The notes beneath the pieces are model-generated. The model did no database searches and had not been told where the DNA came from. It saw only the letters and a program-made list of their open reading frames with translations. This document shows, piece after piece, positions 1 to 47,386 of a stretch of DNA of 64,000 nucleotides (within the stretch, counting starts at the first letter, position 1; every line of letters begins with the position of its first letter). The stretch spans positions 20,154 to 84,153 of the forward strand of contig JANRJF010000255.1 of NCBI GenBank assembly GCA_033764095.1, written 5' to 3'. Made by a program: the position numbers and the translations under genes. This stretch comes from Deltaproteobacteria bacterium (GTDB lineage: Bacteria > Desulfobacterota > Binatia > HRBIN30 > CADEER01).

Positions 1-1
1 G

Positions 2-2020: not shown

Positions 2021-2102
2021 CCACGAACTTCCCCATGAGTGGCACTCGTAGGCGCAGCCGTGCGATTAGTTCAGATATGGCGCGTTCGAGAAGTAAGACA
2101 CG

Positions 2103-3245: not shown

Positions 3246-4515
3246 GCAAAAGACAGGAATTCACGCCGCCGTAGCCGTATCCGGTAACCAGTACGTTTTT
3301 CACGGATCGAGCCGTTGGCACGACCGGGAGGTTCGCCGTCAGATCACCCACTGCCGCCTCCCGAAGGTTTGTATTGGGCGGAACAATCTGGGTCGAAATG
3401 GCCAATGAGCCGGCGGCAACCTGAAAGGCCCCTGAAGCCCCAAATGGATGCCCAAGGACCCCTTTAATTGAGCTAATTGCTGGCGCTGACCCTGCCCCGC
3501 GCAGAGCGATCCTGAGAACCGCGCTCTCCTTGTCATCGAATGTCGGCGAAGAGTTTGCGTGGCTGCAGACGTAATCGATGTCTTTGGCCGATAAGCCGTA
3601 CCTCGACAGTAGTCGGAAGATTCCCTGCGCGGCCACATCGCCAGTCTGATCGATACGGTAGAGGCCCTTGGCATCGCACGAAGACTCACCCCCCAGAACC
3701 TCCGCCAACGGGGCGCCGGCCCGCTCAGCAGCTGCTGCGGCTTCCTCAAGCACGACAAAGCAGGCCCCTTCACTTAGCACGATTCCGGAATGCCTGCGGT
3801 CGAATGGACAAGACGAAAGACTTGGATCCTCGTTGAGCGTCGAGAGTTCCTGGGTTCTGCAAAGCGAGGCGAAGACGCTGGGACTCAATGGGGCCTCGGC
3901 GCCACCCGCGACGCAGAGGTCGGCTACACCCGCCTGAATCAGCAAGCTTCCTAGGCGGATTGCCTCCAATGCAGACGGGCACCCGTTCGCGATGGTCAAT
4001 TGCGGTCCTTGAGCGCCCAGTAGAGCTGCCACCTCTGCCCCCGGCCCGTGGCTAGCCGCTCCACTTACGATAAACGGATTGATCCGCCTGGCACCCCGCT
4101 CCAACATGAGGCCCACCTGAGCCTCAGCATCGGCCCAACCAGCCACCGCAGTCCCTACTACGACTGCTCTCCTGGACGGCGCATACGCACCTTCCTGCAA
4201 CCGCGCGTCCTCTGTCGCCAGCGCGGCCGCGGCGAGGGCGAACTGCGACACCCGGGGCGCGGTTCGAATCGTTCTGGAAGTCAGCAGAGGGAAAAACTCG
4301 TCGTCGGCGACCTGCCCGGCCACTCGGCACGACAAGGAGGAGGCGTCGAATCGGTCAATCGCGCGGATCGCAGACTTTCCCGAGAGAAGCGCCTTCCACA
4401 ACGCGCCCCTGCCTACGCCCACAGGCGCAACCGAGCCGATTCCGGTGATCACCGTCCGCCGTGCTGGGCTCGAAGGCCCCGGGGGAATCGCGCTTTCCAC
4501 AGGGAAACGCTTCAT
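3196..4515 (-). CDS. beta-ketoacyl-[acyl-carrier-protein] synthase (KAS I/II family)
   Basis: N-terminus RRTVITGIGSVAPVG is the classic KAS start. Full-length ~439 aa thiolase-fold condensing enzyme. Start lies 14 nt after the ACP stop. Confidence 0.85.
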   Translation of the reverse strand: MKRFPVESAIPPGPSSPARRTVITGIGSVAPVGVGRGALWKALLSGKSAIRAIDRFDASSLSCRVAGQVADDEFFPLLTSRTIRTAPRVSQFALAAAALATEDARLQEGAYAPSRRAVVVGTAVAGWADAEAQVGLMLERGARRINPFIVSGAASHGPGAEVAALLGAQGPQLTIANGCPSALEAIRLGSLLIQAGVADLCVAGGAEAPLSPSVFASLCRTQELSTLNEDPSLSSCPFDRRHSGIVLSEGACFVVLEEAAAAAERAGAPLAEVLGGESSCDAKGLYRIDQTGDVAAQGIFRLLSRYGLSAKDIDYVCSHANSSPTFDDKESAVLRIALRGAGSAPAISSIKGVLGHPFGASGAFQVAAGSLAISTQIVPPNTNLREAAVGDLTANLPVVPTARSVKNVLVTGYGYGGVNSCLLLGSIYIRSNGRLPNAS

Positions 4516-4528
4516 CTCGGATAGGCTG

Positions 4529-4783
4529 CTACCTTACGCCGGCAGCACACCCATGTATGTATTCGATTATGAGGCCGAGTTCGTTAAGCTCAATTATACG
4601 AATAGGATCTAGCTCGACATCGAACCTCTCTTCGAGCGCAACCTGCATCTCGACGAAAGCAACCGACTCCATGACGACATCCCTCTCTATCGTGGCGCGC
4701 TCATCGAGGGAAAGAGTTGGATCCTGCCCAAACTCCTTCAGCAACTGAAAAACGTACTCGGCAACCTCCTCACGACTCGGCAT
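4529..4783 (-). CDS. acyl carrier protein
   Basis: 84-aa product from an internal ATG (MPSREEVAEYVFQLLKEF...ERDVVMESVAFVEMQVALEERFDVELD). Four-helix ACP pattern with a phosphopantetheine-type Ser in the ESV motif. The upstream part of the 138-aa ORF is probably non-coding. Confidence 0.7.
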   Translation of the reverse strand: MPSREEVAEYVFQLLKEFGQDPTLSLDERATIERDVVMESVAFVEMQVALEERFDVELDPIRIIELNELGLIIEYIHGCAAGVR

Positions 4784-5060
4784 CTGAAACCTCGCGACGC
4801 CGGCCGCGAAAGCTCCGAGTCGTATCCCAAGAGTGCTGCACCGGGCGCCCTCCAGCGCCTGGGAGACCACCTCCCCAGAATGATCGCGCGTCTGGCAATG
4901 GCGGTCGCTCCAACTTTCGCGAGGTAGGTCCAGGATTTGGAACAACTGGCATCATTGACGGCTGAAGTCACGCTGAGTTACGCTTCGGGCCGGCGAGAAG
5001 TCAAGGCGATCTCCTTGGCTCCGCGAAGAACGACGCCAGCAGAGGCAACGAGACGCAATC

Positions 5061-5675
5061 GTGCGCAGCCGGACCATGCCGATAAGCACAAGAGATCTGC
5101 TCAAGGAGTTTTCGTTCAAGGTCGCCGTAGGACCTGACATTGGACCCGCCGTGAACCTCTTTCGACAGGTATATGAGGCTGACGTTGGCTTTGTGCCATC
5201 CGATGGAATGGACGATAGCGCTACCTACCTCATCGCCAAGTGCACCGATGGAGACGTCGCTGCTACATTGCGATTCCTCGGACCAGAGCATCGTCCCTTC
5301 GTGTTCGAAAAATCTTGTGAGGTGGCCCTTCCAGACGGCAGCAGGCCTGCCCTATTGAGCCGCTTTAGCGTGTCGCCGCTATTTCGCGCGGCTCCCCGCT
5401 CGATTGCGCTGCACTTTGGGATGTTGAAGCTTGCAGTCGAATTTGCGCTCCCCTTGGGCGTTACCGACCTTCTTCAATACACCCAGCCGCATCTCATCAA
5501 TTTCTACCGTGCTGCGTTCTTCGAAGCCACGGGTGTGACCTTTGAGTTGCCCCCCTTGCAGAGCAAGATGCATGTTCTTCGCCTCAACTTGCGCACGCTC
5601 GATGAGCGCTGCCGAGCCTCTAACTCCCGCGGCGCAGAGTTCCTTCGTTCTCCTGATCGAATTGTGACCCCGTAA
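5061..5675 (+). CDS. LuxI/FeeM-like N-acyltransferase (autoinducer synthase / N-acyl amino acid synthase family, GNAT fold)
   Basis: LuxI-family landmarks: R..VY....GF (equivalent to R24-F28-W34), acidic DGMDDSATYLI, RFLGP, LSRFSV (the E/L-SRFAV motif), GVTDLL...FYRAAGF. Size ~200 aa. Stop is 3 nt before the histidine kinase start. Confidence 0.6.
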   Translation: MRSRTMPISTRDLLKEFSFKVAVGPDIGPAVNLFRQVYEADVGFVPSDGMDDSATYLIAKCTDGDVAATLRFLGPEHRPFVFEKSCEVALPDGSRPALLSRFSVSPLFRAAPRSIALHFGMLKLAVEFALPLGVTDLLQYTQPHLINFYRAAFFEATGVTFELPPLQSKMHVLRLNLRTLDERCRASNSRGAEFLRSPDRIVTP

Positions 5676-5678
5676 GTA

Positions 5679-7772
5679 ATGCTCCCTTCCTGGTTCGTAC
5701 CCCTAGTGGCAGCCCTCGCAACGGCCGCGCTGGGCGTATTTGTCGCAGTGAGGGGACCGCGAGGCGAGCTGCGCGCCGCGTTTCTGTTTTTCGCCGCCAC
5801 CCTCGTCTTCTGGCACTGCTTTTATCTCGTTCTTTATTTGATACCCGACTACCAGACTGCCTTCGAGGGCGCTCGAATTCTTAGAGTCGGATCCTTCTAC
5901 ATGGTCGCCGCGGTCCTGCATCTTGCAGTTTCGGCGCGAGCAAGACCAAGGCGTCTTTGGCGGTGGATTGTCATTGGCAATTACGCTCTCGCCACCTCCT
6001 TCGTTGTCGCCAATGTATTTGACGTTTGGGTGAAGGAGCTTAGGCGAACCGACGCCGGATACGTCACAGTCGGCACGCGCTGGTACAGCATTCTGAGCCT
6101 CTACGCGTTGCTGAACTTTCTCGTCGCAATATCACTTTCGGTTCGTGACTACTGGATCACGAGGGACCCGCGGGTCAGACAGCAGGTAGGCTTTTGGCTC
6201 GCGGGCATGCTGGTCGCGCTCCCCCTCGGACTCACTAATTTCCTACCTGTTTACGGGGTCGAGTTTCCCCCGCTAGGCAATCTTGGAGCGGCCCTTTGGA
6301 CCGGAATCGTGGCGTACGCGATCGTCCGCCACAGATTGATGGACATCGACGTATTTGTCACCAAGGGGCTCGCTTACGCAGCAGTTACTCTTGTCTTGGT
6401 GACGCCAGCAATCGCAGTGTCAGTTATCCTACAGTGGTGGGCGTTCCGTGCGGTCGACTATGAATTTACGGCGGCGCTCGCGGTCCTGTTCTTGTCGATT
6501 GCCGTTTGTTTTCCGCTGGTTGTGTTCAGTGCCGAAGAGCGCCTGCAACGATCGCTGTTTCGCGCCCGCACCCAGACGCGTCGAGATCTTGCCGCCTTCT
6601 CCCGCAGCATGGTCAAAATTCTCGATAGACAAAGACTGATGGCGGAGATCTGCAACCGGCTGCACGATCTTCTCGACGTCGAACGGGTTGCAATTTACCT
6701 CTTGGATTCTTCAGGTACGCGGTTGGAACTTCGGAAGAGCCAAGGAACCCATGCAGAAACGACGGAGTTTGGGAGTCAACATCCGTTTGTTCGGTGGCTC
6801 GGCCGCCGATCCGAACCGTCGCTTCGCGAGGATGCGGAGGGGCTGGATACGGTGCAGGCAGTCTTTGTCGAGCAAGGGTGGGAGGTCTGCTTACCGATGC
6901 ATAGCGGACGTCAAATGCTCGGATTCCTAGCACTTGGGGCTCGGCATGGGAGGCAAGCGTTCGCGGGGGGCGATCTTGAGCAGTTGGCGGCTATCTCTGA
7001 CGAGGCGGGGGTCGCGTTTGAGAACGCTCGCCTGTACGAAGAGGTCCGGCGGTCCCGTGCAATCATTGATCGCACGAGCAGGCTCTCCTCGCTGGGAACC
7101 TTGGCCGCCGGGATTGCCCACGAGATCCGGAATCCTCTTGTATCGATCCATACGTTCTTCCAAATGGCGCCGACTCGACTCGGCGACGAAGAGTTCATGA
7201 CTTCATTCCTAGGACTGGCGGGAGAGGAGGTGCAGAGAATCAGTAGTTTGGTTGACGAGCTACTGATCTTTGGGAAATCGACGACGACGAATCCGACCGA
7301 GGTGCAGCCAAACGAGGTCGTCGATCGCGGCCTGGCCTTGCTAGCGCCACAGGCGCGTCAGAAGAATGTGACGCTCGATCGAAGTCTCTCAGAATCCCTC
7401 CCCCCCGTTCTGGCCGACGGCGATCAGTTGCTTCAGGTGCTCGTCAACCTGCTCCTGAATGCGATCCAAGCTACTTTGAGCGGCGGTCGCGTCACCGTCG
7501 AAACGCGCCTGATCACGGATGAGACGGGAGAATTCTGCCAGATCGAAATAGTCGACACGGGAGTCGGAATTCCCGCATCGGTTCGTGAAGCGATCTTCGA
7601 TCCCTTCTTTACAACGAAGGACCGTGGAACCGGTCTGGGCTTGTCCGTCGCGCATCGTATCGTCGCCGAATTTGGTGGGTTCCTCTCGGTCGAAAGCGCC
7701 GAAGGCCAAGGAAGCCGATTCAGCGTCAACCTACCTGCGTGCCGTAATCTGGAGTTTCCAGCTGGCGCTTAG
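5679..7772 (+). CDS. sensor histidine kinase: N-terminal ~7TM integral membrane domain, GAF domain, HisKA and HATPase_c (PrsK-like architecture)
   Basis: About seven hydrophobic helices in the first ~300 aa. GAF-like region (VAIYLLD...GFLALG). H-box LGTLAAGIAHEIRNPL. N/G1/G2 boxes (LLLNAIQA, DTGVGIP, GTGLGLSV). No receiver domain. Confidence 0.85.
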   Translation: MLPSWFVPLVAALATAALGVFVAVRGPRGELRAAFLFFAATLVFWHCFYLVLYLIPDYQTAFEGARILRVGSFYMVAAVLHLAVSARARPRRLWRWIVIGNYALATSFVVANVFDVWVKELRRTDAGYVTVGTRWYSILSLYALLNFLVAISLSVRDYWITRDPRVRQQVGFWLAGMLVALPLGLTNFLPVYGVEFPPLGNLGAALWTGIVAYAIVRHRLMDIDVFVTKGLAYAAVTLVLVTPAIAVSVILQWWAFRAVDYEFTAALAVLFLSIAVCFPLVVFSAEERLQRSLFRARTQTRRDLAAFSRSMVKILDRQRLMAEICNRLHDLLDVERVAIYLLDSSGTRLELRKSQGTHAETTEFGSQHPFVRWLGRRSEPSLREDAEGLDTVQAVFVEQGWEVCLPMHSGRQMLGFLALGARHGRQAFAGGDLEQLAAISDEAGVAFENARLYEEVRRSRAIIDRTSRLSSLGTLAAGIAHEIRNPLVSIHTFFQMAPTRLGDEEFMTSFLGLAGEEVQRISSLVDELLIFGKSTTTNPTEVQPNEVVDRGLALLAPQARQKNVTLDRSLSESLPPVLADGDQLLQVLVNLLLNAIQATLSGGRVTVETRLITDETGEFCQIEIVDTGVGIPASVREAIFDPFFTTKDRGTGLGLSVAHRIVAEFGGFLSVESAEGQGSRFSVNLPACRNLEFPAGA

Positions 7773-8148
7773 AGCGGTGGTTAATCCGAACCGCGAGTTG
7801 GACGGGTTCGGCAAACAACGGGCGGCAAGCGGGATACCGGCGAGCGCACGCTTTGGGATGCCGTGCATCCGGGGCGGCGCTGGAGCGAGTTCCAGCCGAT
7901 TCGCGGCCACGGTGCTCGCCAATTGGCGACGCGGCCAAGACGTGCCGTCGCCGCCGCAAGTCGCCAGGACCAAGCAGCGTTCCAAACGTCAGATATTGAA
8001 CGATGGCATCATTCCTGACGACATCTTCGAAGAGCCGGCCGACGACGCCGACAACGACTCAAACCCGGATACTTAGCCTCAAACCCGGACAGTCCCTCGC
8101 CCCTAGGTCGATTGATTCCGGGCGCGGGGCCTGCGAGAATAGGGTTCT

Positions 8149-8658
8149 ATGCCGCGCGCTGGTAAGGCTGAATCGTTGTTCAAGGTTGGAGAGAAGGTCG
8201 TCTACCCTGCACACGGAGTCGGCGTAATCCAGAGCATCCAGACCAAGGTCGTCTCCGGGACCGAGAAGACGTTTTACATGCTGAAAATCCTGGACAGCGA
8301 CATGACCATCATGATCCCGACCGAGAACGTGGCCTCCGTGGGGCTGCGGCGGGTGATCGGGCGGGAAATGGTCACCAAGGTCTACAAGATCCTGCGCGAG
8401 AAGCGGGTCGAGATCGACCAACAGACGTGGAACCGGCGCTACCGGGAGTACACCGAGAAGATCAAGACCGGCTCGGTCCTGGAGATCGCCAAGGTGCTGC
8501 GCGACCTGTTCGTGCTGAAGGGCGACAAGGAGCTGTCCTTCGGCGAACGGAAGATGCTGGATACGGCGCGCAACCTGCTGGTCAAAGAGCTCTCCATCGC
8601 TCGCTCCCACCCGGAGGAGAAGATCATGGAAGAGCTCAAGAACATCTTCGCCCACTGA
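8149..8658 (+). CDS. cdnL: CarD/CdnL family RNA polymerase-binding transcription factor
   Basis: FKVGEKVVYPAHGVGVIQSI, the CarD_CdnL_TRCF N-terminal RNAP-interacting domain. 169 aa. Immediately upstream of ispD, as in many Actinobacteria and Myxococcota. Confidence 0.9.
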   Translation: MPRAGKAESLFKVGEKVVYPAHGVGVIQSIQTKVVSGTEKTFYMLKILDSDMTIMIPTENVASVGLRRVIGREMVTKVYKILREKRVEIDQQTWNRRYREYTEKIKTGSVLEIAKVLRDLFVLKGDKELSFGERKMLDTARNLLVKELSIARSHPEEKIMEELKNIFAH

Positions 8659-17084: not shown

Positions 17085-17254
17085 CGGAAAGCCCTCCGAG
17101 ACCGAGTGCCGGAGGGCTGCTCCAAGAGCAGGGACGGTGCGGTCGACGTGTCGCTGGTCCGCTTCGAGCTTGGTGAGTCGGGTACAGGTTCCCGCTCGGC
17201 TCGCTGCGGGGCGTGACGGCGATCAGCCCGCAATTGCCTTCCGTCTCGGTCCAG

Positions 17255-17929
17255 TTATCTGGATCCAAGCGGTATGTAGTGTTGGACGCCTTGTCCCATC
17301 TCGTGGATCTCGCGCATGAGATCCGCGGTCTCCTCGGAGTGCGCGACGAAGTCGATCTCCGAGCAGTTCACCACGAGCAGGGGAGTCTCCTCATAATGAA
17401 AGAAAAAGTCCTTGTACGCCTCTGCGACGCGCCGGACGTATTCCGGCGTGACGTGTCGTTCGTAGTCGCGTGATCGTTTCCGTAATCGAGCCATAAGCAC
17501 ATCTGCACGCGCTTGCAAGTACACCACGAGATCGGGCTTGGGGATGCGCGCCCCGAGCATGTGGTAGAGCTGCCGGTAGAGCGCGAGCTCATCGGGGTCG
17601 AGGTTGATCTGCGCGAAGATGTGATCCTTGGCGAACAGGTAGTCCGCCACCAGGCTCTGCCGGAACAGCTCCTGCTGGGCGAGCTCCTGCTGCTGGCGGA
17701 AGCGCGTCAGCAGAAAGAACATCTGCGCCTGGAAGGCGTGCTTGTCGGGGTCGTCGTAGAAGCGGCGCAGGAACGGGTTGTCGTCGACCTGTTCGAGCAC
17801 CATGCGCGCCTGCCACTCGTCGGCAATGAGCCGCGCGAGGGTGGTCTTTCCGACACCGATGGGGCCCTCGACGACGATGTAGCGTGTCTTGGTCAGGGCG
17901 CGCTCCCGCAGGCGAGGGGCGAGTAGCAT
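17255..17929 (-). CDS. deoxynucleoside kinase (dAK/dCK/dGK family)
   Basis: P-loop VEGPIGVGKTT and the dNK family pattern (ERS motif region, LVVYL). Confidence 0.85.
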   Translation of the reverse strand: MLLAPRLRERALTKTRYIVVEGPIGVGKTTLARLIADEWQARMVLEQVDDNPFLRRFYDDPDKHAFQAQMFFLLTRFRQQQELAQQELFRQSLVADYLFAKDHIFAQINLDPDELALYRQLYHMLGARIPKPDLVVYLQARADVLMARLRKRSRDYERHVTPEYVRRVAEAYKDFFFHYEETPLLVVNCSEIDFVAHSEETADLMREIHEMGQGVQHYIPLGSR

Positions 17930-19019
17930 GGCCCCCCCGGGGAGTCCAGATTGCGCCGTGACGCGCGCGCTCGCTGGTCAGGTGCTGACCGTCGGCATCC
18001 CCGGCGCGACGCTGACGCGCGGCGTGCAACGCGCGCTGGCGCGCCTCGCGCCGGGCGGCGTGGTGTTGTTCGCGCGCAACGCCGTCGATCCGCCGCAGCT
18101 CGCGGCGCTCACCGCGGCGCTGCACGCGCTGCCATCGCGGCCGTTGATCGGCATCGATCAGGAGGGCGGCCGCGTGCAGCGCCTGCCGGCGCCGTTCACG
18201 CGCTTCCCGAGCGCCGCCGCCATCGGCCGTGCCGGCGCCGGCGCGACGCGCGCCGCAGGCGTCGCGATCGGACGCGAGCTGCGCGCGGCAGGCATCGACA
18301 TCGACTACGCGCCGGTGCTCGACGTGCGCACCGCGGGCGGCGACGACGTGGTGGGCGACCGCGCCTTCGCCGCCGATGCCCGGCGCGCCGCGACCTTGGC
18401 GGTCGCCTTTCTACGCGGACTGCGCGCCGCCGGCGTGCTTGCCTGCGGCAAGCATTTCCCGGGACACGGCGCCGCCGACGCCGACTCGCACCTGCGCCTG
18501 CCGACCGTGCGCCGCGGCCGCGCCGCACTGGCGCGGCGGGAGCTGCTGCCATTCCGCGCGGCCATCGCTGCCGGCATCCCGCTGCTGATGGCCGCGCACG
18601 TGCGCTACCCGGCCCTCGACCGGCGGCGCTGCGCGACGCTCTCGCCGGCCATCGTCACCACGCTGCTGCGGGCTCGCCTGCGCTTCGACGGCGTCGTGGT
18701 CAGCGACGATCTCGCCATGGGCGCGATCCGCAACACCCTCGACGCGCCGCGGGCCGCGGTCGCCGCGCTGCGCGCCGGGGTCGATTGGCTGCTGCTCTGC
18801 GGTGCGCTCGGCGAGGCCCAGCGCGTCGCCGATCAGCTCGTCGCCACCGCGCTCGCCGACCCGCGCTTTGCCGCCCGCCTGCGCCAAGCGGCGGCGCGCG
18901 TCGCCGCGCTGCACTCCCTGCGACGGCCCGCGCGCGCGCCGCTGGCGTTTCCGGTCGCGGCGCATCTCCGACTGGTCGAGCGGATACGCGCCGTGGCGAC
19001 CAACGCGGCGGCTTGCTAG
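17928..19019 (+). CDS. nagZ: beta-N-acetylhexosaminidase (GH3)
   Basis: IGIDQEGGRVQR and KHFPGHG GH3 motifs. Start placed at the ATG at 17928, which shares the CATG tetranucleotide with the divergent kinase start. A start further downstream is possible. Confidence 0.8.
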   Translation: MAPPGSPDCAVTRALAGQVLTVGIPGATLTRGVQRALARLAPGGVVLFARNAVDPPQLAALTAALHALPSRPLIGIDQEGGRVQRLPAPFTRFPSAAAIGRAGAGATRAAGVAIGRELRAAGIDIDYAPVLDVRTAGGDDVVGDRAFAADARRAATLAVAFLRGLRAAGVLACGKHFPGHGAADADSHLRLPTVRRGRAALARRELLPFRAAIAAGIPLLMAAHVRYPALDRRRCATLSPAIVTTLLRARLRFDGVVVSDDLAMGAIRNTLDAPRAAVAALRAGVDWLLLCGALGEAQRVADQLVATALADPRFAARLRQAAARVAALHSLRRPARAPLAFPVAAHLRLVERIRAVATNAAAC

Positions 19020-38750: not shown

Positions 38751-38923
38751 TGGAACAGCCCCCGATGCGAGGAAGTTGGCTTATGTGGTGAGCCCTACCA
38801 GCAAGCCCCCAACGCTGACAAGAACGGGTGCCTGGGGCGCCGCGGCAGTGCGGATCGTGGACAAAAAAAGAGCCGGGAGGATGCCCTCCCGGCTCTCGTG
38901 AAGCCTCGAAGCGTCAGTGCCGC

Positions 38924-40126
38924 TTACGGCATCGTGATGAAGTCCGGCGTGGCGCGCTCGCCCGCCTGATGGATGTTGAATGCCGTCGTGGCGCGCACCG
39001 TCCCCAGATCGTTCGGATCGGTGCGGTAGAACTCCTCCGCCACGCCGAGCAGGCCGTTGCCGTGCAGCGGCGAGCCGTCATCCACACCGCGGATGCGAGT
39101 CTGGCCGGTGAGGGTTCCGGAGACATAGGCGCTGAACACCGAGAACTGGCAGCTGTTGGAGGTCGGATCGTCGTCGAAGATGGCGCGATCCTTACCGGTG
39201 CCCAGCGAGCACAGTTCGAATTCCTTGAAGCAACGCACAGGACGGCTGGCGGAGAAGCGCTGCTCGAACTCGTTGAAGACCAGGAACTGCGCGGTCGTGC
39301 TGAACAGTGCGACGTCCTGCAGGAGGAAATTCTGCGAGCACGGCACCAGCGTCAGGTGCGTCTTGACATACTGGTTGCTGACCGGTTCGACCGCGTCGTC
39401 GAAGAAGTGGTTCAGGATGAGAACGTTCGGGCAGCCGTTGTACTCAGGATCTTCGCCGCCCAGAACCAGCGTGTTGTCGCCATCGTTGGCGCCGGCGATC
39501 GCCTGGATGCCGATGCCGTTGTAGGCGCGCGCATCGATCGAGCTGTCGTCGTAGGTGATGATCGACACTTCGGCCTTGACGTCATTGCGATCGACCGGTG
39601 CATCGTCCGGGCCGACCTGGACGCACTTGAGCTCGCCCATGAACGGGTCTTCATTGACCGCCGGAACCGAGCCCTCCTGGCCGGCATCAGCCAGCGGCAT
39701 CGAGGTGAGCCCTTCGCTGATGCGCCAGATCAGGGGCTGATGCGGCGTCATCGTGATCTCGAAGTCGGTCTCGATCCAGCCCTCGAAGCACAGCCCACCC
39801 GGGATCGGCGTCTGGCAATCCGCCGCTACCGAGCAGACCCGCGACGGATCGTTGGTGCAGTGCGAGTTCGCGTTCACGTAGAAACAACGCATCTTGACCG
39901 CCTGGTCCGATACGTTGGTGATCTGAATCTCGGTGTCGACCGGGTCGCCGTTACCGGTCAGCACACCGAGATCACCGTCGGAGTCGAAGATCAGCTTTGG
40001 GATGACGATCAGGCCAGCCGGCCGATCAGAGGTCACGTCAGCGCGCGAGGCCCCCGCCGTCAACATCAGTCCGCCGAGGATCGCCAGCGCGCCCGCGAGG
40101 ACAGGATTACGCTTCACCGTACGCAT
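38924..40126 (-). CDS. secreted Cys-rich hypothetical protein, paralog A
   Basis: ATG (MRTVKRNPVLAGALAILGGLMLTAGASRA signal peptide) preceded by AAAGGAGAAGGG. ~400 aa. Paralogous to the next gene. Confidence 0.7.
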   Translation of the reverse strand: MRTVKRNPVLAGALAILGGLMLTAGASRADVTSDRPAGLIVIPKLIFDSDGDLGVLTGNGDPVDTEIQITNVSDQAVKMRCFYVNANSHCTNDPSRVCSVAADCQTPIPGGLCFEGWIETDFEITMTPHQPLIWRISEGLTSMPLADAGQEGSVPAVNEDPFMGELKCVQVGPDDAPVDRNDVKAEVSIITYDDSSIDARAYNGIGIQAIAGANDGDNTLVLGGEDPEYNGCPNVLILNHFFDDAVEPVSNQYVKTHLTLVPCSQNFLLQDVALFSTTAQFLVFNEFEQRFSASRPVRCFKEFELCSLGTGKDRAIFDDDPTSNSCQFSVFSAYVSGTLTGQTRIRGVDDGSPLHGNGLLGVAEEFYRTDPNDLGTVRATTAFNIHQAGERATPDFITMP

Positions 40127-40179
40127 TGCCCTTCTCCTTTCAACCGTCAGGGAGAACCCAGCCACAACCACTTCCGCGC

Positions 40180-41424
40180 TCACAGATCCGGAAGCGTGAC
40201 CTTGTCCACGACCTCGCCACCGCTGGCGGTGAATCGATCACCTTCCATGTGGATGTTGAGCGCGGCGCGGGTCAGGTTGCCCGACGAATCGGCGCGAGTC
40301 ACTCCGGCGACGCCGAGCACCGCGCCGCCATCCGGATTCGGGATGATGCGGGTGTGGGCGGCGACAGTCCCCAGGGAGCCGAAGGAGAACACGGACTTCT
40401 CAGGATTGTTCGGGCTGTCGACCTCGAACAGGTAGAAGTTCTTCCAGCAATCGACGGTCGTGCTGGCCGAGAAGACCTGCTCAAACTCGTTGTAGATCTT
40501 GAACTGGACCGTCACGCTGGCCGGCGTGGCGTTCTCGAAGTCCTCGGTGCACGGGATCAGCGTCAGGTCGGTCAGAGAGGCGCTGACCAGATCGATGTCG
40601 CCGGCCATGTTTTCGATCTGCGGCGGGTTGTTGCACACGCCCGTGCAGTCCGCATCGCTGTAGCACGGCGTATTGACCGGTGCGCTGCAGGTGCCGCCCC
40701 GGAGGTTGGCGTACAGCACGGGATCGGTAACGCCCTCCGAGAGGTGGTTGAGGAGCAGGACGTTCGGGCAGGCGTCGTACTGACCGACTGCTTCCTCGGC
40801 TTCCAAGGGCTGGTTCAGCAGCAACTCGTTGCCGGTCTCGCCGGCGAGGTCGGTGCCCTGGATACCAATCGCATTGTACTTGGAGACGTCGTTGTCGGCC
40901 GAGATCAGCGTCGCCTCACCCTTCAGATGGTTGCCGCCGATCGGATTGCCGGCGACGTCCACCTCGACGCACTTGAGCTCGCCGACGAAGTCCTCCAGCA
41001 CCGGCGGGACAGCTCCTGGATCGATACCAGCATTCGAGCATTGCGGGCTCGGCTGATAGCGACCGTCCGAGCTAGAGCAGACGTCGGTCGGATTGACGAA
41101 GCGACCGGTGCTCACCTGCCAATGGGTCGGCTGCTGCTTGGTGAGCCAGATGGTGAAGTCGGTCACCTGCCATTGCGGGATTCCGAAGAAGTCCGGCGCG
41201 GCATTCACATAGAAGCAGTGCGCGTGCACCATGTTGTTCGAAATGTTGGTAATTTGGATGATGGTGTCACCATCTTCCGAATTGGCCAGGACCTTCGGGA
41301 AAGCGAGGATCGATGCTCCCCTCTCCGTCGTGACGGCCGCGTGCGCGGTGCCGGCCATCATCCCCAGCGCCACCGCGACCCCGCAGAGCCCTGAGAGAAA
41401 AGCATTCCGCTTCTCCGTTCGCAT
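40180..41424 (-). CDS. secreted Cys-rich hypothetical protein, paralog B
   Basis: ATG (MRTEKRNAFLSGLCGVAVALGMMAGTAHA signal peptide) preceded by GAAAGGAGGAGGG. ~414 aa. Shares motifs with paralog A (IQITN.S, CFYVNA, GELKCV.V, NGIGIQ, CPNVL.LNH, FNEFEQ.FSAS, NIH). Confidence 0.7.
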   Translation of the reverse strand: MRTEKRNAFLSGLCGVAVALGMMAGTAHAAVTTERGASILAFPKVLANSEDGDTIIQITNISNNMVHAHCFYVNAAPDFFGIPQWQVTDFTIWLTKQQPTHWQVSTGRFVNPTDVCSSSDGRYQPSPQCSNAGIDPGAVPPVLEDFVGELKCVEVDVAGNPIGGNHLKGEATLISADNDVSKYNAIGIQGTDLAGETGNELLLNQPLEAEEAVGQYDACPNVLLLNHLSEGVTDPVLYANLRGGTCSAPVNTPCYSDADCTGVCNNPPQIENMAGDIDLVSASLTDLTLIPCTEDFENATPASVTVQFKIYNEFEQVFSASTTVDCWKNFYLFEVDSPNNPEKSVFSFGSLGTVAAHTRIIPNPDGGAVLGVAGVTRADSSGNLTRAALNIHMEGDRFTASGGEVVDKVTLPDL

Positions 41425-41755
41425 TGCCCTCCTCCTTTCCAGTCGGCCGAGACTCATACCTCACTCCCTTGCATTCGAAACCAAGACGCGGCCGCGCTTT
41501 TTTTGGACGCGGCTGCAGAAGTGGCGCGTTACATACTCAAAATTCAAACACATTGTCAAGGGAATATCGGGCGTTGCACCGCGGCGTACGGACAAACCGT
41601 TCATGTCCGACTATTCCGCGTCACTGGATGAGCGCCCCTCGCTTGCGGCTCAGCCTGCCAATGCCCGTCCCCTCTCCCTCTACCGTTTCGGTGGGCGCTT
41701 AGATCACGTTTCGCCGAACCGGTCAAATGCAAAACCGGGGACGAGATGTACGCAA

Positions 41756-43282: not shown

Positions 43283-44209
43283 TCAGTTGCGCCGACGGAC
43301 CCAGAGCAGCAGTGCCGGCAGCAGCAGGAGGGCAGCGGCTGAACCGTTGCTCTCGCGCGGCGAAACGACATTGCAGCCGTCGTCGTTGTCGGTCGGCGTG
43401 CGCACACCGATCGTCGGCGTGCGCGTCACCGTGTGCGTCGCCGTCGGCGGCACCGTCGAGGTGATTGTCGCCGTCGCGGTCGGCGTCCCCGGTCCGGACG
43501 TGTCGGTCGCGGTGGCGGTGGCCGTCGGCGTTCCCGGCCCGAAGGTATCGGTCGGAGTGGCCGTCGCGGTCGACGTGGCTTCCGTCGGCGGGGTGTCCGT
43601 CGGCGTGGCAGTCGCGGTCGCCGTAACTGGAGGCGTCGAGGTGACCGTCGGCGTTGCCGTCGGCAGCTGATCCACGATGACGATCGAGCCCCCGCGCGTG
43701 ACGACTGGGATCTCCTGTCCCTCCTCGTCGCCGAGGAAGGGCGACTCGATTTCCAGCGCCACCGTGCCGGTCGGCACGCCCGGCTTGATCAGGAAGTCGC
43801 AGGTCGCAAGGTCACCGTTGCCGAGCGGCGGCAGCGGATCGGGCGTCCCGGAGACGAAGATCTCCAGGTTGAGAACCCCGGGCTCGAGGATACGGCCGCC
43901 GATCGCGTGCGTATCGGCGATGCGCTCGGCGACCGAGCAGCTGTCGGCGACCGGCACGAAGAACTCCAGTTTCTCCGCGTCGAACAACAGATCCATCCCG
44001 GCGCTGACGGCGTTGTCCTGGGCGCGATCCAGTGCCAGCGTCACCGACACCGTCCCGCCCGGCACGCCAGTGCCACCGGTGACCGACAGTTCCGGCAACT
44101 CGATGCCCGCGTAGGCTCGCGTCCCGACCCCTACGAGCATCAAGGCACTGAATGCGGTGGTCGCCAGTCCCATTCCCCAGAGTTGCCGCGCCATGCTGGT
44201 GCGCATCAT
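43283..44209 (-). CDS. cell-surface protein: signal peptide, cohesin-like domain, Thr/Pro-rich linker, C-terminal GC-TM-RRR sorting signal
   Basis: Start ATG-ATG with AAGGAGAGG SD. Cohesin-like pattern (TGVPGGTVSVTLAL...MDLLFDAEKLEFF...CDFLIKPGVPTGTVALEI...GGSIVIV). TATATATPTDTPPTEATST... linker. Terminal GCNVVSPRESNGSAAALLLLPALLLWVRRRN. Confidence 0.75.
   Translation of the reverse strand: MMRTSMARQLWGMGLATTAFSALMLVGVGTRAYAGIELPELSVTGGTGVPGGTVSVTLALDRAQDNAVSAGMDLLFDAEKLEFFVPVADSCSVAERIADTHAIGGRILEPGVLNLEIFVSGTPDPLPPLGNGDLATCDFLIKPGVPTGTVALEIESPFLGDEEGQEIPVVTRGGSIVIVDQLPTATPTVTSTPPVTATATATPTDTPPTEATSTATATPTDTFGPGTPTATATATDTSGPGTPTATATITSTVPPTATHTVTRTPTIGVRTPTDNDDGCNVVSPRESNGSAAALLLLPALLLWVRRRN
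43430..43665. repeat. imperfect tandem nucleotide repeats encoding the Thr/Pro/Ala-rich linker
   Basis: Reiterated gtcgcggt(c/g)gc(c/g)gt...cccggcccg units. The opposite strand reads as a VAVAVGV repeat. Confidence 0.5.
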
Positions 44210-44265
44210 GTCCTCTCCTTCCTTCCCGGTTGTGGTCCTCGCCCTACGCAGCGCCCCCGGTCGAA

Positions 44266-47010
44266 TCATGGACAGCCGAGATTGATGTTGTTGATGGCGA
44301 TGGTGATGTCGTTCGCCCGCACCCGTCCATCGCCGTTGAAGTCGGCCGCCAGGCACGCGTCGAGCGGCTGGGTGCCGTTGATGATGTTGACCATGATGGT
44401 GATCTCGTTGGCGCGCACGCGGCCATCGAGGTTGCAGTCACCGACGCATTCGCACTGATCGTTCACGCAGGCCTGGCGGTCATCCAGGCACTGGCCCGGC
44501 CCGGCCATCGGTCCGTCGCACTCGATGATCGGACGGCACTCGTTGCCCTTGCACTCCGTGCCCGAGGGGCACTCATCCGGCTTCGTGCACGGCGGACGCG
44601 GCTTGATCTCGAGCTCGCCACCACTCACCTGCGCGTCAAACGGGTTGGCGCCCGGATCAGCGATCTCGAGACGGTCGAGATCGTACAGCAGCTGGCTCGT
44701 GCTCGGCGACGCCGCCGGCGCAATGCGGAAGTTGCACTGCCAAACCGGCCCTGAGCCGAAGGAGTCGATCGGCGGCATCTTGTCGATCACCGCAACGCGC
44801 AGCCGGCCCAGACCCGGCGGATTGGTTGGCACCTGCGGCAGCTGCACCTCGGCTTCGAAGGAACCTTCCTGCAGCATGCGCGGATGCAACGTGCAGGCCG
44901 GCGTACCGATCGGGACTTCCAGCAGGGAGAGGTCGTAGAGAATGTCCACCTGCGCGGTGGTGATGTCGTCGCCGCCGGCAAGGCCGATATTCACCGTGAC
45001 GTACTCACCCGGGATGCCGGTGATCTTCGGCACTTCGATGGTGCGGGTCTCGCTGCTGCGGTCGAGCGCGTAGATCAGCGGCGACCCCTCGCCCGGGCAG
45101 CCGAGGCCGAGGTTGTTGACTGCCAGCGTGATGTCACCGGCGGTCACCTCGCCGTCCTGGTTGATGTCGCCCGCCGGGCAGATGCCGATACCGCATCCGC
45201 CACCGACGATGCAGACCATCTTCGTGATCTCACTGCCGAAGACGATACCGTCCAGGTTGCAGTCGCCGCCGCACTCACAGATCCCCTCCAGGCAGGTTTC
45301 ACGAATGCCGCGGCATTCGATCTGACCGTCGGGGCACGGCCGCGGCGGCACGCAGACCATGGCGCGGCACTGCGTCCCCTCCGGGCAGTCCTCGTCGACC
45401 ACACAGGTCGGCAGCGGCGTCGGCGTCACCGTCGGCGTCGACAAATCGCGGCAGACACCGTCGACACAGAACAGACCAGACGGGCAGTCTTCGGTCCTGT
45501 CGCAACGGATCGTCGGCGTCGGCGTCGGCGCCTCCACGCACACGTCGTCGGGGCCGCACACCTGCCCAACCGGGCAGTCGGTGTCACGCTGACACGGAAT
45601 CCTACGGGTGGGTGTCGGCGTCGGCGGCGGTGTATCGGTCTTCGTCGCCGTCGCTTCCACCGTCACGTTGGCGCGGATGTAGGCGTCGAGGTAGCCCTGC
45701 GTGTCGGCCGGCACCAGGTTGGTCGCCAGCGACTGGAACGCAACCCAACCGCCGTTGAGACTGATGCTGGGCGGCAGGTCAGGCACGCTGCCGTTCGCCG
45801 GCAGACCATCGACGCTGGAGCTCACCAGGGTCGTGGTCTGCTGCTGCAGGTCGCGCACATACACCTGCGAGTTGCCGTTGGTAGTCACGCCCGCCAACAG
45901 GTTGCTGGCGAACGACCCGAAGGCGACGAAACGGCCGTCGCCACTGATGCTCGGCGGAATGGCGATGTCGTTGCCCTGCTGGCCCATCTCACCGACGCTG
46001 ACGCGCTGCGTCTCGCCGCTCGTGCAGTCGTGCACGAAGACGTCGGCCGCCTGGTTGGTGTCGCCGGCGACCAGGTTGGTGGCGTTCGACTTGAACGCGA
46101 CGATGGTCCCGTCGGCGTTGAGGGCCGGCAGGAAGCTCATCTGGTTGGCCTCGACCCCGGCGCTGCTGACGCTGGCGCGGCAGTACACGGCGCCGTCACA
46201 GGCCACGTAGATGTCGATCACGCCGTTGGTGTCGGGCGACGAGGGGAGCAGGTTGGTCGCGCCGGAGGCAAAGGCGACACAGCGACCGTCAGCGCTGATC
46301 GACGGGGCCACGCTCGGGCCGTTCGCCTGCACGCCGCCGGGTCCGACACTGATCAGCGTCGTCGTGCCGGCGCTGCGGTCACGGACAAAGACGTCGGAGG
46401 TCTGGTTGGTGTCGTCAGGCACCAGATTGCTCGCGACGGAATGGAACGCCACCAGGTTGCAGTTGCTGTTCACGCTGGTGAACGAACTGCCGCCGTCGGT
46501 GGGACCATCGATCCCGACGCTGATCAACTCGGTGGTGGATCTCGTCAGGTCACGCACGTAGACGTCGGTGCGCCCGTTGGTGTCGTTCGGCACCAGGTTG
46601 GTCGCGTCGGAACTGAACGCCACGCAGGTGCAGTCGCTGTCGATCGACGGACGGAACCGCTGCGCCTGACTCGGCCCGTTCGCCGCCTGGCCGCTCGAAT
46701 TGACGCTGACGCGCGTGGTCTGCTCCGCATCGCGGTTGTAGACATACACGTCGGTGAAACCGTTGGTGTCGTTCGGAACCAGGTTGGTGGCATCCGAGTA
46801 GAACGCGACGCAGCGGCCATCGGCGCTCGGCACCGCGCCGCTGCTGTTGCCGTTCGGCTGGCCGCCGCTGGCGCTGACGCTGACCAACTCGACCGGCGGA
46901 TACGGATTCAGCGGCGCGGTCTTGGCCACCTGACCGGTGAGGGTCAGCACGGCAACGAACACGCCCACTCCACACAACGCAACGGTGACCGCTTTTCGTC
47001 CGGCGTTCAT
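44266..47010 (-). CDS. large secreted multidomain protein: 7x PD40/TolB-like beta-propeller repeats, Cys-rich modules, cohesin-like domain, two dockerin (type I-like) modules
   Basis: ATG at 47010 with GGGGAGGTG SD. Signal/TM AVTVALCGVGVFVAVLTL. Seven ~44-aa repeats S.DGR.VAF.S.A.NLV..DTN...DV.V.D. Modules C..D.DCP.G..C....C. Dockerin pairs GDCNLDG.V...EIT.MV / GDINQDGEVTAGDITLAVNNLG and DCNLDGRVRANEITIMVNIING / DFNGDGRVRANDITIAINNINLG. Cohesin-like GIPGEYVTVNIGLAGG...VDILYDLSLLEV. Confidence 0.8.
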   Translation of the reverse strand: MNAGRKAVTVALCGVGVFVAVLTLTGQVAKTAPLNPYPPVELVSVSASGGQPNGNSSGAVPSADGRCVAFYSDATNLVPNDTNGFTDVYVYNRDAEQTTRVSVNSSGQAANGPSQAQRFRPSIDSDCTCVAFSSDATNLVPNDTNGRTDVYVRDLTRSTTELISVGIDGPTDGGSSFTSVNSNCNLVAFHSVASNLVPDDTNQTSDVFVRDRSAGTTTLISVGPGGVQANGPSVAPSISADGRCVAFASGATNLLPSSPDTNGVIDIYVACDGAVYCRASVSSAGVEANQMSFLPALNADGTIVAFKSNATNLVAGDTNQAADVFVHDCTSGETQRVSVGEMGQQGNDIAIPPSISGDGRFVAFGSFASNLLAGVTTNGNSQVYVRDLQQQTTTLVSSSVDGLPANGSVPDLPPSISLNGGWVAFQSLATNLVPADTQGYLDAYIRANVTVEATATKTDTPPPTPTPTRRIPCQRDTDCPVGQVCGPDDVCVEAPTPTPTIRCDRTEDCPSGLFCVDGVCRDLSTPTVTPTPLPTCVVDEDCPEGTQCRAMVCVPPRPCPDGQIECRGIRETCLEGICECGGDCNLDGIVFGSEITKMVCIVGGGCGIGICPAGDINQDGEVTAGDITLAVNNLGLGCPGEGSPLIYALDRSSETRTIEVPKITGIPGEYVTVNIGLAGGDDITTAQVDILYDLSLLEVPIGTPACTLHPRMLQEGSFEAEVQLPQVPTNPPGLGRLRVAVIDKMPPIDSFGSGPVWQCNFRIAPAASPSTSQLLYDLDRLEIADPGANPFDAQVSGGELEIKPRPPCTKPDECPSGTECKGNECRPIIECDGPMAGPGQCLDDRQACVNDQCECVGDCNLDGRVRANEITIMVNIINGTQPLDACLAADFNGDGRVRANDITIAINNINLGCP

Positions 47011-47386
47011 GTCGGTCTCACCTCCCCTAAATCCGACGCGCCGCGCAGCGTGCCCGTTGCCTGCGCGACACGGCACTCACATCGTCTCGCGACCGCGCAT
47101 GCCGAACACCGCCGCTCCACTCCGGCGTCGGCACTCAGGCTCTCGAGCCGTCGAGCCGAGGTTTCGGATCTTTCCGTTCACGCGCGTGTCGACCAACTCG
47201 TCTGCGACTGGTTTCAGTGCCGGCACCGTACAATGTTCAACGGCAAAGTCAAGGATGTTTGATGCATGACAGAGCAGCATCAGATAGCCCAAAGATTGTT
47301 TGCTGACGCCGACTTGCACCGGGCACGCGATGCTGATTGTCGCATGCATAACGCAAGTCGCGGGGCGCGGCGGGTGACCTGGTAAG

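Follow-up and report, generated by a model that had tools for sequence, protein, structure and literature searches.

The locus analysed here raises the question of what two neighbouring genes without a nameable domain encode, and what their products could do together. Both minus-strand open reading frames reported by the first-pass annotation are present in the window (the whole stretch of DNA that was analysed, 64 kb in length): gene B, encoding the B-type subunit, occupies positions 40180..41424 (414 aa and a stop codon, beginning MRTEKRN at the ATG at 41424), and gene A, encoding the A-type subunit, occupies 38924..40126 (400 aa and a stop codon, beginning MRTVKRN at the ATG at 40126). Their start codons are called at the same position in orthologous contigs. 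The orthologues of gene B reach up to 92% identity and every one of them is annotated as a hypothetical protein. No Pfam or NCBIfam model matched full-length A or B at E values up to 1, which agrees with the initial failure to name a domain, and the GC content of the genes (63.2% for A, 62.6% for B) does lie below the background, 68.0% for the window.

The two proteins, their export and their family

The N-termini of both proteins follow the classical pattern of a cleavable signal peptide, as had been claimed. In B it covers residues 1-29 (41338..41424, minus strand) and ends in the cleavage motif A-H-A, according to a heuristic call and the predicted model, in which residues 1-27 form a low-confidence helix; in A it likewise covers residues 1-29 (40040-40126, minus strand). 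Basic residues followed by a hydrophobic core were found, again heuristically, in 488 of the 495 full-length family members, with Ala at -1 in 80% and at -3 in 76% of the cleavage sites and a median presequence of 29 aa. The signal peptide alone places A and B in the periplasm.

A and B are tandem paralogues. BLASTP aligns them with 31% identity (E 2e-51) along the full length, and the shared blocks IQITN, CFYVNA, GELKC, CPNVL and NEFEQ all align between the two colinearly, not in the non-colinear arrangement that would speak against paralogy. The two proteins gave 1,316 and 1,874 matches, and the family comprises 1,810 clusters at 50% identity. Nearly all of its 209 loci in GTDB species genomes are labelled Binatia, and the named sources are almost all Candidatus Binatia. 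The affiliation to Myxococcota suggested at first has to be abandoned, since the relatives that carry a name and show identical synteny belong to Candidatus Binatia.

The arrangement of the family genes is highly regular. Among 194 genes in 81 loci, the co-oriented order BA occurs 48 times and BABA 12 times, and the transitions between adjacent family genes are BA in 76 cases, AB in 15, BB in 6 and AA in one. In the divergent loci the B-A order is kept with the genes overlapping by 4 nt. Each genome examined carries several paralogous pairs, and the pairs fall into four lineages, in which the B-B and A-A identities are correlated (r 0.77). These four pair lineages are old and vertically inherited.

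Fold and conserved residues

The C-terminal half of B (residues 195-414; 40183..40842, minus strand) is an eight-stranded beta-sandwich superposable on TM1070 or ASRT, and we take its fold as established. Both reference proteins belong to the ASRAH superfamily (Pfam ASRT/DUF1362), which includes TM1070 (PDB 1nc7) and ASRT (PDB 2ii7), the sensory rhodopsin transducer from Anabaena (De Souza, Iyer and Aravind 2009, PMC2739507). Within this half, residues 229-282 form a Cys-rich excursion and the NEFEQ motif occupies residues 312-316. The N-terminal half (residues 33-194; 40843..41328, minus strand) is all-beta according to the predicted model and the conservation, with a low-confidence insert at residues 104-145, and also turns up by itself, as a module of large beta-propeller proteins; in A and B alike it probably also adopts an ASRAH-like fold. 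At least half of each protein adopts the fold of a small domain for which binding of sugars or other small molecules is predicted. An internal duplication of the halves was considered and rejected: when the two halves were compared by hhalign, first on 56 and later on 552 sequences, the probabilities stayed below 1%, leaving a common origin of the two without support.

The likeness to TM1070 and ASRT exists at the level of fold only, with 7-9% sequence identity. Profile searches detected neither the ASRT/DUF1362 Pfam model nor an HMM link to TM1070 or ASRT sequences; 32 N-terminal and 25 C-terminal halves had no match in Pfam at E up to 10, and phmmer and hmmsearch profile searches against all PDB sequences at E up to 10 returned nothing meaningful. 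TM1070 and ASRT reside in the cytoplasm, have a single domain and a length of about 115 aa, and form homotetramers, whereas B and A are exported, about 400 aa long, two-domain, disulfide-rich, endowed with long inserts and diverged into two subunits. B and A also lack the strand-1 Trp and the SHEshChhN signature of ASRT and TM1070: strands 39-48 and 283-291 have no conserved Trp where they begin or close by, and the conserved W85 and W102 lie elsewhere. The scores against carbohydrate-binding modules and lectin sandwiches (CBM4, CBM11, CBM22, CBM32, CBM35, galectins) were at the background for sandwiches, with no sequence match.

In strand 2 of TM1070, H25 and C29 contact the ligand and N32 is the turn residue (PMC2739507). 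Strand 2 of B (residues 52-60) presents D53 (98% conserved), Q57 and N60 (99% conserved) with the same -7, -3, 0 spacing. N60 closes the predicted strand 52-60, N312 (96% conserved) comes right after strand 303-311, and each precedes a 5-residue turn, which would make them candidate counterparts of TM1070 N32. In the C-terminal half, Q307 lies on the same face as N312. By analogy, counting back from the Asn, D53 and Q57 would occupy the H25 and C29 positions and mark a candidate ligand cleft.

The first-pass annotation had counted at least ten conserved cysteines and proposed disulfide-stabilised extracellular proteins. The notion of exported, disulfide-rich proteins stands, but the count does not: only five cysteine columns are common to A, B and the family, with C70, C152, C219, C292 and C326 of B corresponding to C81, C168, C232, C263 and C299 of A, respectively. 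The remaining six cysteines of each mature protein sit in non-homologous, lineage-specific inserts, such as the four-Cys insert of gene A (C90-C113, minus strand). Of 552 members, 538 have the full set of five core cysteines; C326 is the sole loss in 11 cases, and C219 and C292 are missing together once. The number of cysteines in the mature protein is odd in 486 of the 552. We regard C70-C152 and C219-C292 of B as probable disulfides, whereas C326 of B (codon 40447..40449, minus strand) and C299 of A (39230-39232, minus strand) appear to be an unpaired conserved cysteine. An intermolecular B-A disulfide through this residue found no support, as A-type proteins without the cysteine have B partners that keep it (loci L082 and L083) and no co-loss was seen in the three pairs examined. 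Eight of the 12 aligned members without a cysteine in the C326 column carry C-terminal tails of at least 25 aa; as the members without it group loosely together, this association may reflect one or a few evolutionary events.

The invariant polar residues of B (E313, E315, H227, Y216, D89 and D407), together with the free cysteine, would also suit a catalytic or metal site. One could argue that A and B are extracytoplasmic enzymes, either cleaving or modifying glycans or acting as a thiol-dependent hydrolase or transferase, with an active site formed by E313-x-E315, H227, Y216, D89 or D407 and C326. We consider this unlikely: the only strong fold match is a non-catalytic small domain, with no catalytic family of this fold; the sequence searches in Pfam, NCBIfam and PDB (for halves in Pfam and profiles against PDB, at E up to 10) gave no match; C326 is dispensable in tail-bearing A-type members; and two diverged subunits in strict order are unusual for a simple hydrolase. 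Neither protein could be assigned to a well-characterised enzyme family, the outcome that would have spoken against the original view of the pair; the fold match is to the poorly characterised TM1070/ASRT domain. Methylotrophy and alkane oxidation use metal-dependent enzymes. A metal-binding or metal-handling function in the envelope, for example for copper via C326 with His and carboxylate ligands, would account for a lone conserved cysteine beside the invariant H227, E313 and E315 in an otherwise fully disulfide-bonded exported protein, and would be in line with the description of Binatia as methylotrophs and alkane oxidisers (PMC8262859); we give it a very low probability.

Expression signals and genomic surroundings

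The promoter, leader, maximal Shine-Dalgarno sequence and strong terminator frame a B-A operon. The -35 hexamer TTGACA (41554..41559, minus strand) is invariant in 13 aligned orthologous upstream regions and is followed by the invariant element TTTTGAGTATGTA (41530..41542, minus strand), within which the hexamer TATGTA (41535-41530), 18 nt past the -35 hexamer, would serve as the -10 element, judged from its position and spacing. The combined motif TTGACA-N11-TTTTGAGTATGTA occurs once in the window and in 33 type-I loci, in every case at a distance of about 135 nt upstream of where B starts; a strict consensus promoter scan missed it because the -10 hexamer ends in A. If transcription begins just past the -10 element, the 5' leader (41425..41529, minus strand) is about 100 nt long. 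Its start (ACGCGCCACTTCTGCAG) and its final ~40 nt are kept in the alignments, with a variable, GC-rich middle. A structured RNA leader was rejected: the leader had no match in Rfam, where a sub-threshold suhB-like match covered the terminator only, and RNAalifold found no consensus structure with covariation. Downstream of gene A, an intrinsic terminator (38858..38897, minus strand) with a 13-bp stem containing 9 G-C pairs and a following T run begins 27 nt past the stop codon, and no terminator was found in the 53-nt B-A spacer (40127..40179, minus strand).

The extended 9-nt Shine-Dalgarno sequence of gene B, GAAAGGAGG (41431..41439, minus strand), lies 6 nt ahead of the ATG, and the ~40 nt around it are invariant. 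The spacer carries the Shine-Dalgarno sequence of gene A (GAAAGGAG, 40134-40141). GAAAGGAG occurs three times in the 64 kb, two of these being the ribosome-binding sites of A and B with the start ATG 7 nt downstream in each case, and the nucleotide identity of this region and the first codons, as observed originally, was confirmed. The explanation offered for it, a recent or homogenised 5' end, did not hold. In type-I orthologous loci B always has GGAGGAGGG followed by ATG CGA, and A always GGAGAAGGG followed by ATG CGT, so that the region is found in both genes of every such locus with the gene-specific differences fixed, and it is unchanged in type-I orthologue comparisons in which the dS of the gene bodies is 0.7-1.5. 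The shared translation start reflects long-term selection, not gene conversion.

Taken as sequence signals, these elements suggest high abundance of the products. S-layer genes typically show such strong expression signals. It could be that A and B are self-assembling S-layer-like coat or matrix scaffold proteins without a specific small ligand. Their promoter is strong and invariant, the leader runs to about 100 nt, the Shine-Dalgarno sequence is maximal and the terminator strong, as is typical of envelope proteins of very high abundance; the all-beta multidomain build, the several paralogous pairs per genome and the Foldseek matches to RbmA, a scaffold protein of biofilms, and to capsid proteins go in the same direction. 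However, these matches are weak (TM-scores below 0.22), the proteins are small for S-layer subunits and lack an anchoring module, four long-kept pair lineages fit specialised binding better than a single lattice, and the cleft positions of TM1070 are matched by conserved polar residues in strand 2. We hold such a coat to be improbable.

The neighbourhoods give little functional information. They are of three conserved types and consist mostly of housekeeping genes, identified by eye in representative sequences (TopA, TrmFO, GlnE, IlvE, GshB, LptD, MsbA-like, EtfD), which we interpret as synteny and not as shared function; a functional operon context was rejected on this ground. The sole functional link is a nucleotide-sugar dehydrogenase adjoining the type-I pairs. 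The first-pass annotation had proposed a secreted binary toxin or adhesin, or a cargo of the neighbouring cohesin-dockerin proteins, and this we consider most improbable. The toxin proposal conflicts with the conserved housekeeping surroundings and the four old, vertically inherited lineages; A and B showed neither similarity to PirA/PirB or iota-type toxin folds nor a mobile or patchy distribution. As to the cohesin partnership, Pfam detected no Dockerin_1 or EF-hand in A or B, both of which stop right after the last conserved strand, and two of the three neighbourhood types contain no cohesin gene. The neighbouring cohesin protein (43283-44356) has a MYXO-CTERM-type tail, scoring below the cutoff of the model; the features of such a tail (Gly-Cys motif, hydrophobic helix, basic tail) are absent from A and B.

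Among relatives a faint trace of the partnership does survive, as a few distant A-type proteins end in their own dockerin or in a MYXO-CTERM-like tail (a Thr/Pro linker followed by a Gly-Cys, hydrophobic and Arg-rich segment). The dockerins are confined to distant relatives such as P0346, P0374 and P0371, and the association with the cohesin/dockerin and MYXO-CTERM display systems of the same genomes is limited to a minority of relatives. Additionally, the A-type module terminates large beta-propeller surface proteins. These tails and fusions suggest a surface location of the family. A restriction of the tails to A-type subunits did not emerge: 13 of 14 tailed members are A-type, but so are 79% of the listed representatives, and the difference is not significant.

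A possible envelope complex and its meaning

Our tentative reading, which we rate at somewhat less than an even chance, is that B and A form an abundant exported heteromer which, in the cell envelope, binds a glycan or another small ligand. The two genes constitute an operon that has a promoter, leader and terminator to itself and encodes two disulfide-stabilised proteins exported by Sec, each about 40 kDa in mass and made of two beta-rich halves, of which the C-terminal ones are TM1070/ASRT (ASRAH) beta-sandwiches and the N-terminal ones probably likewise. As the B-type and A-type representatives of a family which extends across Binatia and appears to be inherited and duplicated only in B-then-A units, the two would assemble outside the cytoplasm into a heteromer made in large amounts. 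Such a unit would contain four sandwich domains, matching the dyad and tetrad rule of other ASRAH families, and may bind its ligand in the periplasm or at the cell surface; its role in the envelope would be lectin-like, structural or anchoring, and not that of an enzyme or toxin.

The nearest parallel would be the secreted ASRAH families. Other ASRAH families form dyads or tetrads and are predicted sugar binders, and the secreted ones comprise lipoproteins of actinobacteria, which have two ASRAH domains, and amidases of Chloroflexi, which have four (PMC2739507); the sugar binding is itself a computational prediction, and another line of work has examined ASRT as a protein that loops DNA (PMC8660804). 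Like these families, B and A are extracytoplasmic, and their two beta-rich halves per protein and paired genes would amount to ASRAH-type domains in dyads or tetrads. Envelope-glycan binding is predicted for both groups, and both adjoin sugar-nucleotide or glycan genes at some loci, which for B and A is the type-I nucleotide-sugar dehydrogenase. In contrast, B and A lack both a lipobox and an amidase, are not detectably related to these families in sequence, belong to a different phylum (Binatota) and reach their multiplicity partly through two separate genes.

One may go further and imagine a previously unseen, abundant heteromeric assembly in the envelope, peculiar to Binatota, in which TM1070-fold domains build a lectin-like coat or a lattice for anchoring, with four pair types per genome for different glycans and the free thiol taking part in attachment or ligand chemistry. 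We think this extension unlikely.

To our knowledge, Binatota is a globally distributed phylum without a cultured member. The family counts among its large lineage-specific ones, with about 1,800 clusters at the 50% identity level, and has no name, domain model or studied member; a metaproteomics preprint in which Binatia appear does not mention it. It obeys a clear genetic rule, by which B-then-A units are obligatory in each of the four old lineages. The fold assignment would make it a fourth, secreted, two-subunit branch of the ASRAH superfamily, whose role rests on prediction. If the heteromer and its ligand binding are false, this would be an ordinary lineage-specific family of hypothetical exported proteins. 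If they are true, the family would offer a way into the biology of the envelope in an uncultured phylum and a natural system in which to learn what ASRAH domains bind.

Paralogy, export and distribution of the B/A family

The window contains two adjacent minus-strand genes, B (ATG at 41424, stop at 40180; 414 aa, MRTEKRN...) and A (ATG at 40126, stop at 38924; 400 aa, MRTVKRN...), which are separated by 53 nt and whose ATG codons both lie 7 nt past GAAAGGAG; gene calls in orthologous contigs begin at the same start codons. The first-pass annotation had described them as tandem paralogues of an unnamed family with cleavable signal peptides and a GC content below the background, and this description largely stands. 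The two proteins align colinearly over their full length (31% identity, E 2e-51), every motif block that had been listed aligns between them, and the GC content of B (62.6%) and of A (63.2%) is below the 68.0% of the window. Comparison with orthologues gave dN/dS values of 0.13-0.35, and neither protein matched Pfam, NCBIfam or PDB sequences. Both N-termini carry basic residues, a hydrophobic core and an A-x-A site, and heuristic scoring (not SignalP) found an export-type N-terminus in 488 of 495 full-length family members, with Ala at -1 in 80%, Ala at -3 in 76% and a median presequence of 29 residues. A low-confidence N-terminal helix in the structure model agrees with this heuristic signal peptide.

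A 90%-clustered collection yielded 1,316 and 1,874 matches for the two proteins, the named ones being all "hypothetical protein"; a profile search of 50% representatives gave 1,810 clusters (E up to 1e-3), and the GTDB species genomes contain 209 loci. Records that name a taxon are almost all Candidatus Binatia or carry older labels (Deltaproteobacteria, Myxococcales). The few odd-labelled records share synteny, e.g. L007, a related locus labelled Mycobacterium with the gene order of the window (type I), and we take such labels to be binning errors. Given the labels of the relatives, the shared synteny and the lineage, the window comes from Binatota and not from Myxococcota, the phylum that the first-pass annotation had named.

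Pairing of B with A and gene neighbourhoods

Gene calling in 81 related loci and the window returned 194 family genes, each typed as B or A according to how it scored against the two proteins of the window. They form co-oriented arrays of two, four or six that read B-A (BA 48 times, BABA 12 times), the transitions between adjacent family genes being BA 76, AB 15, BB 6 and AA 1; divergent loci too retain the B-A order, with 4-nt gene overlaps. Such strict pairing is strong genetic evidence for what would be a two-subunit product, and we infer a physical heteromer of B and A, which we regard as rather probable. Proteins that share one of the four pair positions (I, II first, II second and III) are 51-54% identical for B and 49-54% for A. 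Between positions the identity falls to 37-46% for B-B and A-A alike, B against A stands at ~34%, and B-B and A-A identities correlate with r 0.77 over 2,850 comparisons. This pattern implies that B and A split first and that the pair was then duplicated as a unit; the four pair lineages predate the divergence of the sampled Binatia and have persisted ever since.

The pairs lie in three conserved neighbourhoods. Type I, that of the window, reads MgsA-type AAA protein, PD40/dockerin protein, cohesin protein, nucleotide-sugar dehydrogenase, B, A, EtfD-like Fe-S protein and ETF; type II reads TopA, TrmFO, GlnE, IlvE, B-A-B-A and GshB; type III has two MsbA-like ABC genes and an FG-GAP lipoprotein (divergent), then B, A and LptD. 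The type-I neighbours come from a Pfam/NCBIfam scan or contig annotation, and the type-II and type-III functions are our reading of representative sequences. In all type-I loci a 936-aa protein (44266-47076, minus strand) with PD40-type propeller repeats, Cys-rich DUF7107/EB-like repeats, a cohesin-like segment and a C-terminal type-I dockerin adjoins the cohesin-domain protein (43283-44356, minus strand), and the two look like a Binatia cohesin-dockerin surface system. The cohesin protein ends in a long Thr/Pro-rich linker and 'DDDGCNVV...LLLLPALLLWVRRRN', a tail with a weak match to the MYXO-CTERM sorting domain (TIGR03901, E 0.0077, below cutoff); similar tails on some A-type family members elsewhere suggest a MYXO-CTERM-like sorting system in Binatia. 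That B and A would be a toxin or the cargo of these cohesin neighbours, as proposed earlier, we consider most improbable; the three neighbourhoods are housekeeping synteny, not functional operons.

At L004, a related locus on a 4.77-Mb Binatia contig, two group II intron RT genes of identical length (6808-8181 and 17185-18558; RVT_1 + GIIM, 457 aa), absent from the window, flank the orthologous B-A locus. Positions 1-8000 of the window, possibly a foreign island or else the result of an assembly join, have a GC of 0.56-0.60 versus 0.69-0.74 from ~9 kb on; their ORFs include a fatty-acid desaturase (2103-3245, minus strand), a beta-ketoacyl synthase (3196-4515, minus strand), a 7TM-GAF histidine kinase (5679-7772, plus strand) and a 657-aa ORF (47-2020, plus strand) without a Pfam match.

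Fold and cysteines

The C-terminal half of B matches by fold the ASRAH superfamily of small beta-sandwiches, which includes TM1070 and ASRT. The N-terminal half has eight predicted strands as well, and profile-profile comparison found no similarity between the halves. A lone N-terminal half precedes a complete A-type module at the C-termini of P0350, P0352, P0339, P0363 and P0290, large secreted relatives from outside the window with beta-propeller regions (Vgb-lyase/NHL or lactonase/YNCE type), and in this it behaves as an autonomous module. P0243 and P0296 appear to be A-B or A-A fusions or the product of gene-call read-through.

The ASRAH superfamily was defined by De Souza, Iyer and Aravind, whose prediction is that strand 2 lines a binding cleft for sugars or small molecules; in TM1070, H25 and C29 contact the ligand and N32 makes the following turn, and the non-ASRT families always occur as dyads or tetrads (PMC2739507). 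ASRT was also studied as a DNA-looping protein (PMC8660804), thus the reference function is itself unsettled. Compared with TM1070, the B strand 52-60 carries D53 (98% conserved), Q57 and N60 (99%) at the spacing of H25/C29/N32. Within the C-terminal half, strand 303-311 leads into N312 (96%) and then the invariant E313-F-E315, and Q307 lies on the same face. An enzyme could also use the invariant Glu, His and Cys residues of the family, which we consider unlikely beside the fold match. The ASRAH strand-1 Trp is missing in the B/A family, sequence methods found no link to ASRAH families, and the parallels with strand 2 of TM1070 are suggestive only. Therefore, we class B and A not as Pfam ASRT members but as a new two-subunit, secreted variant that has the ASRAH fold without being related in sequence.

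At least ten cysteines had been called conserved; only five columns are common to A, B and the family, namely C70, C152, C219, C292 and C326 of B (C81, C168, C232, C263 and C299 of A), and each mature protein has six more, all of them in inserts without homology between A and B. All five are kept in 538 of the 552 aligned members, among which C326 was lost alone 11 times and C219 together with C292 once. The cysteine count of the mature protein is odd in 486 of the 552 and even in most members without C326. The simplest reading would be core disulfides C70-C152 and C219-C292 and further ones within the inserts, which would leave C326 as a single free thiol. A metal-handling protein, with C326 as a ligand, we consider very improbable. 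An A-B disulfide through the C326 column is not supported, since at the related loci L082 and L083 A is without that cysteine and its B partner retains it.

C-terminal tails (dockerin, Thr/Pro linker with a MYXO-CTERM-like signal, or Cys-rich) are found on 8 of the 12 aligned members without a cysteine at the C326 column, an association that is a lead and not a statistic because the tailed members are related to one another. The tails, and the fact that large surface proteins end in the module, indicate that at least part of the family is on the cell surface. A ligand-free S-layer-like scaffold appears unlikely to us beside the strand-2 parallels.

The four-Cys inserts lie at different places, residues 86-113 of A (~39788-39871) and 246-264 of B (~40633-40689), in a similar style (C-x7-8-C-x5-DC-x3-8-C). 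Similar Cys-rich repeats occur in the neighbouring 936-aa protein, and some inserts of relatives gave weak DUF7107, conotoxin or Dickkopf-type matches; a small disulfide knot module seems to have entered surface loops repeatedly in this lineage.

Expression signals and proposed role

Upstream of B, the -35 hexamer TTGACA (41559-41554, minus strand) is followed after 11 nt by the promoter element TTTTGAGTATGTA (41542-41530, minus strand), both invariant in 13 aligned orthologous regions. The combination has a single occurrence in the window and recurs in 33 type-I loci, at a constant distance to B, and the B-A operon apparently has its own promoter; after A lies a terminator with a 13-bp stem (9 G-C pairs) and a T run. 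A second promoter-like element (41698-41726, minus strand), TTGACC (41726-41721) then TGATCTAAG (41706-41698), lies just past the nucleotide-sugar dehydrogenase stop codon, ~170 nt upstream of the main promoter; eight close orthologous loci conserve it, and it could serve as a distal promoter or mark where a small transcript starts.

The Shine-Dalgarno core of both genes is GAAAGGAG, an octamer found only 3 times in 64 kb, which presumably gives the longest possible pairing with the 16S rRNA 3' end. The last ~40 nt before the B start (GGTCTCGGCCGACTGGAAAGGAGGAGGGCA; 41425-41470, minus strand) are nearly invariant in orthologues, likewise the region before A (TCCCTGACGGTTGAAAGGAGAAGGGCA; 40127-40160, minus strand). 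Such conservation exceeds the Shine-Dalgarno need, so that a protein or small RNA might bind here as a regulator; the leader matched no Rfam family and showed no covarying structure. The shared 5' end had been thought recent or homogenised. However, every type-I orthologue has GGAGGAGGG...ATG CGA for B and GGAGAAGGG...ATG CGT for A at a dS of 0.7-1.5 in the gene bodies, and type-II and type-III pairs have their own versions on the GAAAGGAG core. Therefore, the shared 5' end is old and selected. We infer selection for very high translation, which would make the proteins abundant.

In the picture that we favour, a single transcript would yield B and A in similar amounts, and both would be exported by Sec, oxidised and joined in a B/A unit of four beta-rich halves. 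The ligand of this unit in the envelope may be a glycan or another small molecule, and its role would be a lectin-like structural or anchoring one. We are confident of an exported two-domain pair; the whole picture is tentative, and glycan or small-molecule binding is slightly more tentative still. The new results are a fold for the family, its organisation as an obligatory B-then-A unit in four old lineages, a lone thiol that is conserved and expression signals that are invariant. They make the B/A family a good and clearly delimited target within an uncultured phylum.
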